A stretch of 57,407 nt of DNA, the filler included, from Squatina squatina (lineage: Eukaryota): the NCBI GenBank assembly GCA_031763465.1. It is 3 parts of 3 records of this genome, joined end to end, with 100 filler letters (N's around TTAATTAATTAA, not from the genome) between each part and the next. Parts side by side here need not be neighbours in the genome. Positions count along the whole stretch, not along the records: positions 30,079 to 57,407 come from JARFOE010000079.1; 2 more parts are not named here. One strand, 5' to 3'. Below the pieces are notes generated by a model. That model had not been told where the DNA came from and did no database searches. It saw only the letters and a list, made by a program, of their open reading frames with translations. A program made the translations under genes and the position numbers. Of the stretch, positions 13,396-51,264 are shown piece by piece; position 1 is the stretch's first letter; each line of letters begins with the position of its first letter.

Positions 13396-14653
13396 ATACC
13401 AGATAGGACGCACTGCCATTTCATAGCCATACAGTTCTACTTGAACACATTAGTGACAAACCCACTCAAGCTCACACGTGTAATTTGTAATTTCATACCA
13501 GGAACATGATGGTGTGTGACTTATGCTAGGACTTTAAATGATGACATTAATAAAGAATGATTCTCCCATTTGTAAGGTAGTATTTCAGGTGGGCAGAGTG
13601 ACTGGTGACTTCACATGAAGTGTGGGGGGAGTGCTGCCACCAGAACACGTATAGCAGTAACAGGCCCAAGCAGAAAGAGCAACTTGTGGGAAGCAGTGAG
13701 GAAAACTGGTGCACTGGCCACTAATTGCAGACACCTTCTAAGGAGTGTCATTGCTCCGCATATCCTAAAAGGGCAAACTAAATCTGTAAAGTAACTGTGC
13801 CCAAATCAACCCTGTTCTACACATTAATGCTCAGCTCTTTAAATACCGTCTGTTGACATCTTATAGTGGGCCCCTGCTATATTATATTGAATGACAAACA
13901 GATACTCAGCACAATGGCTCAAATTGGGCCGGTGCACTTAATTACTCTACTGTGTAGTCAGTGAACATTGACAAATGTGTAAACGAATATCAAATTTCTA
14001 CTTTTCTACTTCAGCATTTGTGATTCATTCCCAAATTAATGAAACAGCGAAGGCAAAGAAGGCTGCCTTTGGCTTTCCATTTTAGTTTTACTTTTTGGGA
14101 GGTATATCCAGTCCCTACAGGAAACATATTTTGGACTGTCAGTACAGTTAGTATTTATAAATAGCAGCCACTCAATAACATTTCCGTGTGCCCATCATAA
14201 TGCCGTGATCTTTACAATATGGTTAGCCTTCAGAAGGGAATTACTCCAAAGAGCACCAAATAAGGAAAAGTCCCAGTGATCCAGCAGAGAACTGAAGATA
14301 GGTAATCTGCCTTATGAAAGACAGGAAGTACAAACTGTTTGACACTGGTCACAAAGTAATTATTTATTTGTAGAAATACAGAATTTCCATGGACGTTTAG
14401 TGCTTCTAAATGACTTGTTCCTGAGAAATGCAAAATAATGAGCAGAAATTGCCCGAATTAACAAATCCTTTCCATGTTGGCATGGCTTTTCGTTTTTTTG
14501 GGACAAAGAGATAATAAGCTTTTCTAAATGGTACAATCTGCTTAACTGCAGGGATAGAAAATCTGATCTGGACTAATTCCAGTTTTCTGTTACCAAGTCA
14601 CATCAGATTNNNNNNNNNNNNNNNNNNNNNNNNNNNNNNNNNNNNNNNNNNNN

Positions 14654-14665
14654 TTAATTAATTAA
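14654..14665. other. Artificial linker TTAATTAATTAA inside an N44/N44 spacer
   Basis: Exactly 44 N on each side; palindrome with stop codons in all six frames. Confidence 0.95.
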
Positions 14666-14879
14666 NNNNNNNNNNNNNNNNNNNNNNNNNNNNNNNNNNN
14701 NNNNNNNNNGTAGAAATCTGCAGTAAGGATATCTTGCACCTTTAGAGTGCAAAAGATTAATCCCACAAGTTTTTAAGATACGTATTGAAGTGATGAATTA
14801 CTCTTCATGGAGAGATGAATTAATGCTCTGCACTATAAAAAAAATCCTATCAAAAGAGGCAAATATAATCTGCATAAAC

Positions 14880-28912: not shown

Positions 28913-30022
28913 AATCTCCCCTACTATCTCATGTGTGGTAAACCATTGTGCCAACATGACGTTGGTCAAAATGTGGGAGTTCTGTTAAGACCATTACAAG
29001 TTCGGAAACACAATGATAATTATGCAAACAGCAATGCAATCTATCCACTGCATGATTATTGAACAAAAGCAATCCAACCCACACCTTGTGCACAGGTGGA
29101 CTGAGAACTGCATGCATGCAACTGATTGCCTTGTGGACATATGGAAAGTCTTCTATCCAGCAAAAAAAAACCTCATGTTTAATTTCATGTTGATGCTGAG
29201 GGGTACTTGAAAAACAGATGTTAACTTGTTTTCTTCATCAAAACATATGTTAGTTGTGCCACACACTGGGAGATAGATGCTGGACTAATCCTCATATCCC
29301 CTGCAGGGAGCAGGAAAATTAACATAGCCATAAAAATTCCAGTGTAACAGTGAACATGGCATGCACCTGGGTTTGCTCGCTGTGGCTTTACTGTCATTGA
29401 TATCACCCTGTCAACTTTCACATAGCCTAACACTACACAGTTATGTAAGGTCTGAAACACTCAGGTATTGTGTTGCACTGTAGAGAGGACCTAAGTCTTC
29501 CAGATCCTGGCACTTGAGTGCTTGCTATTTATAAAAGTGCCTGCTATAGAGACAAAAACATAAAAGCACGCTGCCAGATAAACATTGCTAACATTATACA
29601 TCCATCTTTACCTAAGTATGAAATAGTTCAAAGCAAATTGAAGGAAAAGGGAGTTAAAATTTGTTGAACTACAGGTGAATTGAATATGGAGAAAACCCTT
29701 AAAACAACACCTCAACACCTCAAAAATGTAATTGGACAATGAGCCTGTAACTCCCAACAGTGAACTGATAATCAAGTCCCACTGGACCTAAAGAGAGAAT
29801 GTTACCAGTAGACCATCATAGACATTAAAGAAACACATAAAGATATTTTATAAAGGCATTTACATGTACCATTAATGAAAGCCCACAGCAAGACATGCAA
29901 ATAAAATATTTGGTATTCTAACTACATAGAAACATAGAAAATAGAAGCAGGAGTAGGCCATTCGGCCCTTCGAGCCTGNNNNNNNNNNNNNNNNNNNNNN
30001 NNNNNNNNNNNNNNNNNNNNNN

Positions 30023-30034
30023 TTAATTAATTAA
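30023..30034. other. Second artificial linker TTAATTAATTAA inside an N44/N44 spacer
   Basis: Identical structure to the linker at 14654-14665. Confidence 0.95.
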
Positions 30035-30207
30035 NNNNNNNNNNNNNNNNNNNNNNNNNNNNNNNNNNNNNNNNNNNNAAGGTAAGGGATAAATCGAGTT
30101 GAGATACACATCAGCCATGAAATAACTGAATGGTGGGTCAGACTCGAGGGTCAGAATGGCTTCCCTCCTGTTCCTGTTTACCCCCTCCCCACCCAGAAAC
30201 AACGTAC

Positions 30208-31110: not shown

Positions 31111-31534
31111 CTCACTCTCTCAGTGACAATTTTAAATTGATGACCACTCATCACTGACACCCCAGCAAAAGCAAATAGTCTTTCCTGTTTCACTTTATCA
31201 AAACACTTTGCAAACTTACAAATCTTAATTGAACCTCTTAGATTTTTCTGCTTCATCGGAAATAGTTCCTGAATCTCATAACTATCTAACTATATAGTTA
31301 CATAACTATAACTATAATTTTCCATCGCAGGCATTATCCTGGTAAAGTTACACTGTATGGTCTCGATGACTTTAATATCTTTTCTGTAATGGATTGTTCA
31401 AAATGGCACACAGTACTGAACTATGGCTTAACTATTGCCTTGTACAAGTGTATCATTGACTCTTGTACTCTACATCTCTATTGACAATTTATGGTTGTGT
31501 TTGCTGCAGGTTGGGTTGGAAGCAACTCTGAAGG

Positions 31535-32027
31535 ATGGTGACCATCAAGATGATGTTGCTGGGCAACGAGCTTGCGGGGAAGACCTCAATGATTGTGTGC
31601 TTGACCACCAGTGTCTTCCCCAGGGACAGTCTGCCCACCGTCTTCGACACCTTCAGCACCCAGATAACCTTGGACGAGCGAATGGTGATCTTGAACCTGT
31701 GGGACACGGCGCCCCAGGAGGAACACCGTCTCTCCATCCGGCAGTTCTACTACCCCCATACGGACATCTTCATCATTTGCTTCTCCATCTGTGACCCGGG
31801 CTCCTTCGAGGACATTTGGAATGACTGGTACCCCGAGGTCAAACGTCATCGTCCCAGTGTGCCTGTGCTCCTGGTGGGAACCAAGAAGGATCTCCGGCAT
31901 GACCCGGCCACCATCCTGAGCCTGCTCAAGCGCGAGTTGGCACCGGTCAGTTACCAGCAGGGCGCCAGCCTGGCCAAGAGGATGAACGCGGTGAAGTACC
32001 TGGAGTGCTCGGCGCTGCTCCGGGAGG
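31535..32027 (+). CDS. Atypical RhoG-like small GTPase, 3' end lost in gap
   Basis: Acceptor tgcag| at 31509, 25-nt 5'UTR, then 164 uninterrupted codons collinear with RhoG ([24 protein letters not shown]). P-loop reads GNELAGKT and G3 reads DTAPQE. Confidence 0.88.
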
Positions 32028-32425
32028 NNNNNNNNNNNNNNNNNNNNNNNNNNNNNNNNNNNNNNNNNNNNNNNNNNNNNNNNNNNNNNNNNNNNNNNNN
32101 NNNNNNNNNNNNNNNNNNNNNNNNNNNGAACGATCCTATTGTTATTTTTCTTCAGAGGAGCCGCTCTTCCCAGATGCTTGGCGGCGGAGAGAAGGGAGGA
32201 AGGGGTGGGGGTGGAAGGGAAACTGAATAGTGGGAACCGGTGCAATTGCAGACTTTAATCAAGCCATTAATTTTCCCTCTCAAAAGCTGGACAAAGATGA
32301 GCTCAGCCCATCGAGCGTGGCGACTTTCCAACTGGAAGCAGAGCCTGGTCCGAGATCGCGATGTTCTGTCCGTGCAGTGGTCCGGGGTGGGGGCGGGGAG
32401 GTGGGGCAAGATGGAGGAGCCTTCC

Positions 32426-32702
32426 TCACAAGAGCATACAACTTCTTTTGCCTTTCACCGGAGCCGGGTTAATGACAGCCCTTACCGCTTCAGCAAAGAC
32501 ATCTTTGATTCCTTCCTGGTTGAGCGCGGAGCACTCCATGTACTTCACGGCCTGGATCTGCTTGGCGAGGCCGTTGCCCTGGTGTTGTGAGATGGGTGCC
32601 AGGCTCTGCTCCTTCAGCTTCTTGATGGTTTCCGGGTCGCTCCGCAGATCCTTTTTGGTGCCCACCAGGAGCATGGGCACGTCCGGGCAGTGGTGGGTCA
32701 CC
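32426..32702 (-). CDS. RHOG: Canonical RhoG, C-terminal half
   Basis: [20 protein letters not shown]...[24 protein letters not shown], with CAAX box; matches the recalled RhoG C-terminus. Confidence 0.92.
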
Positions 32703-32802: not shown

Positions 32803-33386
32803 GTGTTCATGCGAGACAGGGAGAATTTGAGCATGTCATACTGTCGGCCGTTGAGGCACTCCGGGCAGGAGCAGGAGATCTTGTGAGGGTTGGGGATGAC
32901 GTGTCCTTTCTTCATCAGCAGGTCCACAATCTCAAACAGGTCCTTCTGGCAGGCCAGGGTCAGAGGTGTGACCCCTGGCGCGAAGCGGGAGCTGTCGATG
33001 GAGTGGTCGAACAGCGCCAGGGAGAAGGACATGATGTCCACCTTGTTGTGGCTCACCCCTTTCTGCTGGTCCAAGCGTTCCAGCAGCAGCCTGACCACAT
33101 TGATGAGGTTCATATCCACGGCCACCAGCAGGGCCTCGTGGATCTGGCGGAAGTCGAACTTGACGAAGCGGAGGAGGCCCACGATGATCTCCTCGCTGCC
33201 CATGCGGATGGCCAGGTTGAGGGCCTCCCTCCACAACCGGTCCTCCGCATCGTCCAGCTGCCGCAGGATCCCGTCGCTGGTCTGCAGGAGCTTGTAGAGC
33301 TTCGGCAAGTTCCCGTCGTAGATTGCGGCAATCAGGCTCGGCGGGAACTTCATCTTTTTCCCGACAATCTCCCTCCAGTTGTCCTC
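32803..33386 (-). CDS. TRPC2: TRPC2 ankyrin-repeat exon, 3' truncated by gap
   Basis: Polypyrimidine tract then cag|GAG. WREALNLAIRMG, VKFDFRQIHEALLVAVD, SRFAPGVTPLTLACQKDL and LKFSLSRMN match recalled TRPC2-specific motifs; no stops. Confidence 0.93.
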
Positions 33387-33644
33387 CTGAAAAGGGGGAA
33401 AAAAAAACAAACCCCACCCGATGGGTGAAGGCATCAGAGCAGCGACGGCGGGTGGGGGTGGCGAGGGTCAAACCCCAGGGCTCACGGCCCTCGAACTGCC
33501 ATTCCAATCCAGCCCAGGCTGGGCCGTCCGGCACCCTATCCTGCTCGCTCCATGGGCCCCGGAACTAGACAACGCACCGGGGGGGAGAGGGGGGAGAGAT
33601 AGTCTGTCAACAGGGGAGGGTGAGAGGGTTTGTGTATTGGGGCA

Positions 33645-50367: not shown

Positions 50368-51264
50368 CCCAATGGCGACGGGCACCACCTGCTAATATTC
50401 CTCAGCTTTCTGTTGGTTTATGTGATCATCCTCGCGGCCAATCTAACCATTATGTTCTTGGTCAAGACGGAGTCCCATCTGCACAGTCCTATGTATTACT
50501 TGCTCTGCATTCTCGCCGGCATCGACATCATTCTGAGCAGCGTGACCATTCCCAAGATTTTAGCCATGTACTCGTTTCAGTCCAGCTCGATTTCCCTGGA
50601 GGCCTGCGTCACCCAGATGTTCTTTGTCTACTGCACGGCGTTGAGTGAATCGACGCTTCTGGTCGCCATGGCTTATGACCGGTATGTGGCTATTTGCCAG
50701 CCCTTCAGCTACCACAAGCTGAAGTTCCAACACCTTATCCTGGTGGTGGCCCTGGTTATTTTCCTCCGAGCCGTGTGTTTCGTCGCAGTGGCAGTGTTGC
50801 TGACCCAAGCCACGTACTGCGGCTCCAACTTTATCCAGAATTGCTACTGCAATTACGGTTCTCTCTCCAAGCTGGCCTGTGGCGGCGTGACTGCGAGCGA
50901 TGCCATCACCTACCCCTTGTCCTTTCTCATCACGTTACCAGACAGTTCCCTCATTGCCCTTTCCTACGTCAAGATTTTCAAAGTGGCCTTTAACGCCGGG
51001 CAGGGCGAGGCCCGTAGCAAAGCTCTCAACACCTGCACCACCCATTTCTGCATCCTGATGCTGTTCTACACCAGCGCTCTGTTCGAGTTCACCATGTATC
51101 TTGTCCCCAGCCTCTTCTCTCCCGAGCTCCATTTCGTGGTGGCTGTCACCTTCGCGATTTTCCAACCCGTCTTCAACCCCATCATATACGGCGTGAGGAT
51201 GAAAGAAATCAGGAACAGCTTCCTGAAACTGCTGGGCAGGCAGAGAGTTAGAGATGGACCGTGA
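50368..51264 (+). CDS. Olfactory receptor (OR-family GPCR), intronless, N-terminus lost in gap
   Basis: Frame open from the contig edge (PNGDGHHLLIFLSFLLVY...). OR motifs LHSPMY, MAYDRYVAICQP, SY.KIF, KALNTCTTH and PVFNPIIYGVRMKEIR; no internal stops. Confidence 0.95.
   Translation, partial: PNGDGHHLLIFLSFLLVYVIILAANLTIMFLVKTESHLHSPMYYLLCILAGIDIILSSVTIPKILAMYSFQSSSISLEACVTQMFFVYCTALSESTLLVAMAYDRYVAICQPFSYHKLKFQHLILVVALVIFLRAVCFVAVAVLLTQATYCGSNFIQNCYCNYGSLSKLACGGVTASDAITYPLSFLITLPDSSLIALSYVKIFKVAFNAGQGEARSKALNTCTTHFCILMLFYTSALFEFTMYLVPSLFSPELHFVVAVTFAIFQPVFNPIIYGVRMKEIRNSFLKLLGRQRVRDGP

Follow-up and report, generated by a model that had tools for sequence, protein, structure and literature searches.

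A RhoG paralog of cartilaginous fishes without Gly12 and Gly60: a candidate GTP-binding, GTPase-deficient atypical Rho protein

In the window, that is, the whole stretch of 57,407 nucleotides of Squatina squatina DNA analysed here, a RhoG-like reading frame at 31535-32027 lacks the glycines of both positions 12 and 60, and the question arises whether such a frame is a working gene and, if so, what kind of G protein it encodes. Translation of 31535-32027 gave an open frame of 164 codons from the ATG at 31535 with zero stops, which covers, free of introns, codons 1-164 of 192 of an atypical RhoG paralog (31535..32026, plus strand). As stated in the original prediction, codon 12 is GAG (31568) and codon 60 is CCC (31712), giving E12 and P60, and K16, T17, D57, A59 and Q61 stand at the places given there. 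The term catalytic glycines has to be corrected, G12 and G60 being, as is generally known, backbone or steric residues rather than catalytic ones. The top PDB match of the frame was RhoG (181.8 bits), followed by Rac2 (174.8) and Cdc42 (147.2), and the Pfam Ras profile was matched with 120.7 bits. The alignment to the PDB RhoG bore out the predicted collinearity and the one-residue insertion in switch II; the Rho insert is full length and collinear with that of RhoG. All motifs lie on the plus strand. The P-loop GNELAGKTS (31562..31588) keeps G10, G15, K16 and T17, while E12 (31568-31570), L13 and S18 are new. Switch I (31616..31654) keeps F28, P34, T35, V36, F37 and D38 and carries Y32S (31628-31630), N39T and Y40F. 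The G3 motif and switch II (31703..31756) read DTAPQ (P60 at 31712-31714) followed by H64, the one-residue insertion, S66, Q69, F70 and Y71, and the G4 motif TKKD (31880..31891) and the G5 motif CSAL (32006..32017) were read from the sequence. Y32S, C18S and R66S are thus further replacements relative to RhoG; of the residues of classical cycling RhoG, G12 and G60 are lost and Q61 is kept.

The predicted splice acceptor was also found. A pyrimidine-rich tract with AG at 31508-31509 forms the 3' end of an intron (31486..31509, plus strand; sequence and contig alignments), and the 25 nucleotides between this AG and the ATG, the 5' UTR portion of this exon (31510..31534, plus strand; contigs X1 and X6), hold no upstream ATG. 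The DNA-type contigs X2, X7 and X8 match the window from 31486, through the acceptor. X1 and X6, which come from one study and whose RNA type is a guess by the tool, begin at 31508/31509 and are preceded by 141 and 142 differing letters, which is consistent with alternative 5' exons being joined to this acceptor. Inner parts of the gene are covered by X9 and X11, from a second study, and X12 matches, over a short length only, a different Rho gene. At the other end the contig stops at 32027 and an assembly gap of 100 N follows (32028..32127), so that the final 28 codons, CAAX box included, are absent from the window; when orthologue C-termini were searched against the window by tblastn, they matched only canonical RhoG, and the 3' end of the paralog was not found there. 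The gene had been called intact: this is shown only for its full-length orthologues, such as P0122 (93% identity) and Heterodontus P0002 (89%). The CAAX box could likewise be recovered from the orthologues only, reading CVLT in 23 and CILT in 1 of 24 full-length sequences.

In order to place the gene, its surroundings were annotated. Runs of N number 42 in the window, and two 12-base linkers are flanked by N. The latter (14610-14709 and 29979-30078) consist of 44 N, a 12-base AT linker and 44 N and are probably artificial record joins. The first record carries ABC-transporter and myosin exons, unrelated to the RhoG locus. The third record (30079-57407) consists of short pieces in a row, most of them set apart by 100 N. 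Here the 3' half of a canonical RhoG ending in CMLL, likely the parent locus, occupies 32426..32701 on the minus strand; it is 90% identical to Hypanus RhoG P0011 and 73% to the second shark paralog, RhoG2 or rhogd (P0394). A TRPC channel exon with Ankyrin and TRP_2 domain matches follows at 32805-33467 (minus strand), presumably of TRPC2 and of interest for shark chemosensation. An olfactory receptor frame lies at 50368-51264 (plus strand; Pfam 7tm_4, 231 bits), and further neighbours are a WDR73 exon, a ribonucleotide reductase exon and a rhodopsin-class receptor. The neighbours, presumably TRPC2, RRM1, CCKBR and FHIP1B, are in our assumption those of a region like the human RHOG region. Since the order of the pieces in the third record may be reference-guided, a shared neighbourhood in the window is, taken alone, weak evidence.

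A single-sequence search returned 9 clusters at 62-89% identity, the next being canonical RhoG, down at 55%. Expansion of the clusters gave 21 named shark and ray species with the labels 'RhoG-like' or 'member Gb', and a profile search added the chimaera orthologue, Callorhinchus milii XP_007904918; full-length orthologues are thus known from 22 named species. Residues were counted in 24 elasmobranch rows (the window, the 21 named species and 2 further rows; the redundant rows P0127, P0130 and P0133, all E12/P60, were omitted) and compared with 36 canonical RhoG rows of our own choice. G10, E12, L13, G15, K16, T17, S18, F28, S32, P34, T35, F37, D38, W56, D57, H64, the insertion, S66, R68, F70 and Y71 are invariant in the 24 rows. 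At position 60, 21 rows have P, the 3 skate rows have S and 0/24 have glycine; position 67 is I, V or M, and position 103 is mostly R, H103 being lost. In canonical RhoG, G12, Y32, G60 and R66 are kept in 36/36 rows and the C-terminal residue is Leu in 36/36. The chimaera orthologue has A12, S18, S32, A60, H64, the insertion, Q69, F70, Y71 and CVLT; its W56 is replaced by R, and its G4 and G5 motifs read TQID and SAR. What is constant in the family is the loss of Gly60, not P60. The search for orthologues with the predicted pair thus gave E12 in 24/24 and P60 in 21/24 elasmobranch rows, therefore chance or a base-call error was set aside; among the differences listed between the window and contigs of three related organisms, none falls in codons 12 or 60. 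A change from Gly to Pro takes two base changes via Ala, and judging from the codons the chimaera A60 may be a possible intermediate. Among the 150 matches listed in a search of 50% cluster representatives, in which relatives more than 50% identical to RhoG would stay hidden, one clade member (P0003) and no intermediate form appeared, and the ESM Atlas search gave generic Rho clusters only. The fixed changes fall on 11/36 conserved sites of the P-loop and switches and 12/80 elsewhere, an enrichment which is not significant (Fisher p 0.077); strand beta1 is likewise rewritten in the clade.

The same data bear on the possibility that the frame is a pseudogene or an assembly artefact of the Squatina squatina genome. 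Its absent 3' end, the fragmented scaffold and 9 amino-acid differences from the window common to organisms B and C would be in line with it. However, there are 164 codons without a stop or frameshift and full-length orthologues in the 22 species, and selection could be measured. Of contigs from 8 runs aligned to the window, four, representing three organisms, served for Nei-Gojobori counts against it. Among the differences listed, X2 showed 14 synonymous and 10 non-synonymous changes (dN/dS 0.19), X8 21 and 9 (0.11), X7 18 and 11 (0.16), and X6, over 147 codons, 18 and 10 (0.14). If every unlisted difference was taken as non-synonymous, the worst case, dN/dS was 0.17-0.29 with Fisher p <= 0.002. 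On the window's own side (changes common to X2 and X8) there are, beside the 9 non-synonymous differences, 12 that are synonymous (dN/dS 0.21, p 0.0005). Because transition bias is left out of account by the method and GC3 stands at 0.85, these values may be somewhat low. The range of 0.11-0.19 against three relatives is far from that of a young pseudogene; the gene is not one, and it is under purifying selection. Pseudogene or artefact is thus extremely improbable, and the original view of a constrained derivative rather than decay is upheld by the orthologues in 21 elasmobranchs and the chimaera, the dN/dS values, the splice-type joins and the conserved CAAX box. The window frame is the coding exon of a third RhoG paralog in cartilaginous fishes.

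The origin of the paralog was traced with trees from which RhoH, Rnd and RhoU were absent. With the P-loop and switch columns removed, five chondrichthyan rows formed a clade (100/99, 100/100), which sits on a long branch within the RhoG group. That group was separated from four Rac rows at 100/99; the Rho-family phylogeny suggested earlier thus places the window clade with RhoG, not Rac. In AU tests, placement with chondrichthyan RhoG gave p 0.49, with RhoG2 0.44 and basal to RhoG 0.23, and grouping with the P60 rows of salamanders gave 0.31 and 0.15. Since no placement was rejected, these tests do not pick the sister group of the clade. The paralog is on the same chromosome as canonical RhoG in 13/14 species (indirect evidence, from contigs of equal size); the exception is Cetorhinus, where canonical RhoG is on a separate 81.6-kb contig. 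The RefSeq accession distance to canonical RhoG is 3 in Mustelus, 7 in Hemiscyllium, 8 in Scyliorhinus torazame, 9 in Amblyraja and hundreds in five other species. Scyliorhinus torazame also has four extra RhoG-like annotations (P0424-P0428) on three other large contigs, possibly retrocopies. Identity with RhoG2 was ruled out by a separate canonical rhogd, which is present in sharks and rays on other contigs and groups with bony-vertebrate RhoG2 at 99/97. A retrocopy origin was set aside as unnecessary, because the gene has an intron upstream and one coding exon is already the structure of RhoG itself. The simplest reading is a local RhoG duplicate which predates the split of sharks and chimaeras.

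Other RhoG duplicates have changed at the same sites. G60P, which the original prediction did not know from a described Rho protein, also occurs in salamanders, where three RhoG-like proteins (P0207, P0209, P0388) carry S12 and P60. They have a shortened, degenerate switch I, no switch II insertion and a Leu-ending CAAX box, and in axolotl the accession of the copy lies 5 away from that of canonical RhoG. These rows group with amphibian RhoG (85/69; joining the shark clade, p-AU 0.15), while in a 70-row tree with all columns they adjoin the shark clade (93/85), possibly through long-branch or motif attraction. The salamander state is probably independent of the shark gene. A motif pattern could be read in 407/460 proteins, and all 27 true P60 rows, which represent at most two independent origins, are without G12; an apparent G12/P60 row (P0246) proved to be a pattern artefact. 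Two E12 rows of frog type fall within frog RhoG. Frog-type P0141, P0409, P0159, P0180 and P0218 are fast-evolving RhoG duplicates with E12, G59 or S60, and in bullfrog three duplicate accessions are consecutive after canonical RhoG. The RhoG-like killifish/poeciliid proteins P0165, P0171, P0184 and P0197 have R61 and a changed switch I, and the two of them placed in the tree fell in the RhoG2 clade. Myxocyprinus P0186, another RhoG-like protein, has A12 and Q59, and its branch in the tree is long.

As to function, a GTP-binding, hydrolysis-dead, regulator-insensitive and probably farnesylated Rho protein with a partner surface of its own is, by analogy with known proteins, on balance the probable reading. 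The predicted retention of the nucleotide-binding residues was borne out: G15, K16, T17, F28, T35, D57, S158 and A159 are invariant in the 24 rows and in the chimaera. Q61 is kept in 23/24 rows (Narcine has R61) and in the chimaera. D118, the G4 Asp, is kept in 23/24, P0122 having Glu; the same G4 change to Glu, at window position 31891, is seen in organism B (run X7). With G1, T35, D57, G4, G5 and F28 intact, Mg-GTP binding would be likely, and the motifs by which a class (ii) pseudoGTPase is recognised (G1, T35, D57, G4, G5) are kept (definitions in PMC12490416). The N-terminal class (ii) pseudoGTPase of p190RhoGAP is modelled as binding GTP/Mg constitutively without catalysis, its GTP being structural (PMC6523970), and would provide the same model of binding without catalysis; it is a domain of a large protein, whereas the shark paralog is a free-standing, prenylatable Rho of 192 residues. 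A nucleotide-free class (i) pseudoGTPase, of which only the fold remains, could be argued from the G4 Glu in one lineage and from TQID and SAR in the chimaera. It is highly improbable given the invariant residues above, such domains, AAGAB for example, being described in PMC12490416 as without conserved G motifs.

The orthologue P0002 was modelled with a 150-row alignment, a 24-row alignment having given pLDDT 44. The model (mean pLDDT 88.4, pTM 0.86) showed a normal G domain with the insert helix at 124-132 and switch II as one helix (63-75), the switch blocks reaching a pLDDT of about 63 (residues 61-70). Its top Foldseek matches were Rac and RhoG (rmsd 1.1-1.5 A, TM 0.89). The model is nucleotide-free and silent on catalysis, and the low switch values count against our reading, as do the insignificant concentration of fixed changes and the G4 Glu of P0122 and organism B.

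Residues 12, 60 and 32, where mutants of KRAS and H-Ras are known, are all changed in the shark paralog. The nearest measured analogue is KRAS G12D/G60R, likewise with an acidic residue 12 and a non-glycine 60; its intrinsic GTPase and NF1 binding were completely lost, PI3K binding was lost and RAF1 binding reduced (bioRxiv 10.1101/2024.10.22.618529). In H-Ras, G60A and Y32F lead to state 1, and hydrolysis is drastically impaired (PMC4867591). KRAS G12D/G60R and H-Ras G60A are, however, laboratory Ras mutants with Arg or Ala instead of Pro and a native switch II. By this analogy, the side chain at 12 would block the arginine finger of a GAP, and without the G60 amide and Y32 the gamma-phosphate contacts would go, so that hydrolysis and switch closure would fail; the proline ring at 60 could also lower GTP affinity and favour GDP. 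It is odd for a dead enzyme that Q61, T35 and A59 are kept, unlike in Rnd. A GTPase that still cycles, if slowly, under a GAP and a GEF which co-evolved with it would account for these and for E62, E63 and R68, which are kept as well. It would agree with Ala only at 12 and 60 of the chimaera, whose A12/A60 form is milder and where cycling may persist, and with the RGK proteins, which retain low activity (PMC2174817). But in Narcine Q61 is replaced, hence dispensable in at least one lineage, and all KRAS G12 substitutions except Pro are transforming, consistent with a GAP block (bioRxiv 10.1101/2024.10.22.618529), which makes such a slow cycler distinctly unlikely.

The surfaces for regulators and effectors appear to be altered as well, as had been predicted for GEFs and effectors. 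ELMO is contacted by V36, F37, Y64, R66, L67 and L70 of RhoG (PMC7351999) and in addition by W56, T69, P73 and Q74 (PMC10023680); judged from the residues, V36 and F37 are kept and H64, S66, I/V/M67 and F70 stand for the others. A constitutively active RhoG which drives ELMO-DOCK-Rac like a G12 mutant would be suggested by E12 and by the retained V36, F37, D38, W56 and P73 of the ELMO interface. Yet R66, which forms a salt bridge with ELMO E13, Y64, L70 and T69 are replaced in 24/24 with the register shifted by one, and G60R is a second-site suppressor of KRAS G12D (bioRxiv 10.1101/2024.10.22.618529), so this reading is very unlikely. GDI contacts include Y64, R66, L70 and H103, and GDI-1 requires an Ala-Tyr-Arg triplet and H103 (PMC8253491). 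The loss of Y64, R66, L70 and H103 would thus remove GDI and ELMO contacts. RhoH, with S66/I67 as in the shark paralog, is a GDI-1 non-binder in Table 2 of that paper; against a loss of GDI binding, it complexes with all three GDIs in vivo (PMC8253491).

An 'off-shaped' inhibitor, state-1-like or GDP-preferring, could dampen RhoG and Rac by occupying a GEF or a shared regulator. T35, V36, F37, D38 and W56 are kept in elasmobranchs, and H-Ras G60A is reportedly dominant negative. In H-Ras either G60A or Y32F is enough to favour state 1 (PMC4867591), and G60R suppresses KRAS G12D (bioRxiv 10.1101/2024.10.22.618529). On the other hand, KRAS G12D/G60R engages SOS poorly, SOS-mediated exchange being below the intrinsic rate of G12D (bioRxiv 10.1101/2024.10.22.618529). 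The chimaera has R at 56, and the fixed new residues of switch II suggest a new partner. DH-domain GEFs use D65, R66, Y64, L70 and N39, all of which are replaced in the shark paralog. We regard such an inhibitor as unlikely. Under the GTP-binding, hydrolysis-dead reading, the new fixed face of switch II (H64, the insertion, S66, Q69, F70 and Y71) would serve a partner not used by RhoG.

The CxxT end, in place of the CxxL of RhoG, would direct farnesylation. Both Thr-ending human Rho proteins, TC10 and RhoD, are listed as farnesylated in Table 2 of PMC8072805, although RhoD is listed as geranylgeranylated too, which counts against the inference. The output of Rnd and RhoH is controlled by expression (PMC13236570; PMC8305018). 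Taken together, the switches, the CAAX box and the pocket lead us to propose a farnesylated membrane scaffold that would be hydrolysis-dead and insensitive to regulators, probably ignoring the GAPs, GEFs and GDI of RhoG, and the output of which would be set by how strongly it is expressed.

Compared with RhoG itself, the paralog is alike in its PDB match, intact insert helix, tree group and chromosome, and differs in sequence (about 55% identity), in the loss of G12, Y32, G60, Y64, R66, L70 and H103, in the switch II insertion and in the CAAX box. With RhoH, Rnd1-3 and RhoBTB1/2 it shares the loss of G12 and R66 and, probably, farnesylation and expression control. Rnd, RhoH and RhoBTB lose Q61 and keep G60, whereas the shark paralog keeps Q61 and loses G60. 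The G3 motifs of GTPase-deficient Rho proteins are AGNDA, SGSPY and FGDHH (PMC8072805 Table 3), and G60 is kept in all human Rho motifs tabulated there, the GTPase-deficient ones included. RhoH has a shortened Rho insert, a C-terminal LFSINE insert and a CKIF box (PMC8072805); identity with RhoH was ruled out by the full Rho insert, the lack of the RhoH C-terminal insert and the 192 residues ending in CVLT. The fast-cycling RhoU/V type, with F28 replaced and G12 kept, was ruled out by F28 in 24/24 and the loss of G12. The RGK proteins (Rad, Gem, Rem) resemble the paralog in that G12 and the G3 glycine are both replaced; binding of GTP and GDP is retained in them and hydrolysis is slow (PMC2174817). 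They belong to the Ras branch and have a DXWE motif, a calmodulin site and long termini, none of which is present in the shark paralog. By analogy, the paralog likely works like a GTPase-deficient atypical Rho, yet it is not Rnd, RhoH or RhoU/V.

The gene had been called a candidate undescribed GTPase. RefSeq already annotates it as RhoG-like, so this does not hold for the annotation; a published description of the shark gene was not found among titles and the beginnings of abstracts, most subscription papers lying outside this scope, and the whole word RhoG is absent from PMC5499878. Literature data on G60P were not found in the same search. No human orthologue was found, the distribution being in non-model lineages. 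GTPase-deficient Rho proteins are already a known class, and RGK proteins provide a precedent for losing G12 together with the glycine of G3 (PMC2174817).

What the finding may mean can be put as follows. We propose tentatively, and with somewhat less than even confidence, an atypical Rho subfamily which predates the shark-chimaera split and in which switching was abolished through loss of G60 (Gly to Ala to Pro), G12 and Y32, salamanders having converged on the same state. Substitutions at G60 are otherwise familiar mostly from disease and from the laboratory. Here a natural series exists, with A12/A60 in the chimaera, E12/S60 in skates, E12/P60 in sharks, E12/P60/R61 in an electric ray and S12/P60 in salamanders; being under purifying selection, it would allow a test of the role of G60 and of the change from switch to scaffold. 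If the proposal is true, the path from a RhoG duplicate to a locked, regulator-proof G protein that engages a new partner can be taken more than once, and a vertebrate atypical Rho hidden behind the label 'RhoG-like' would be added to the family.
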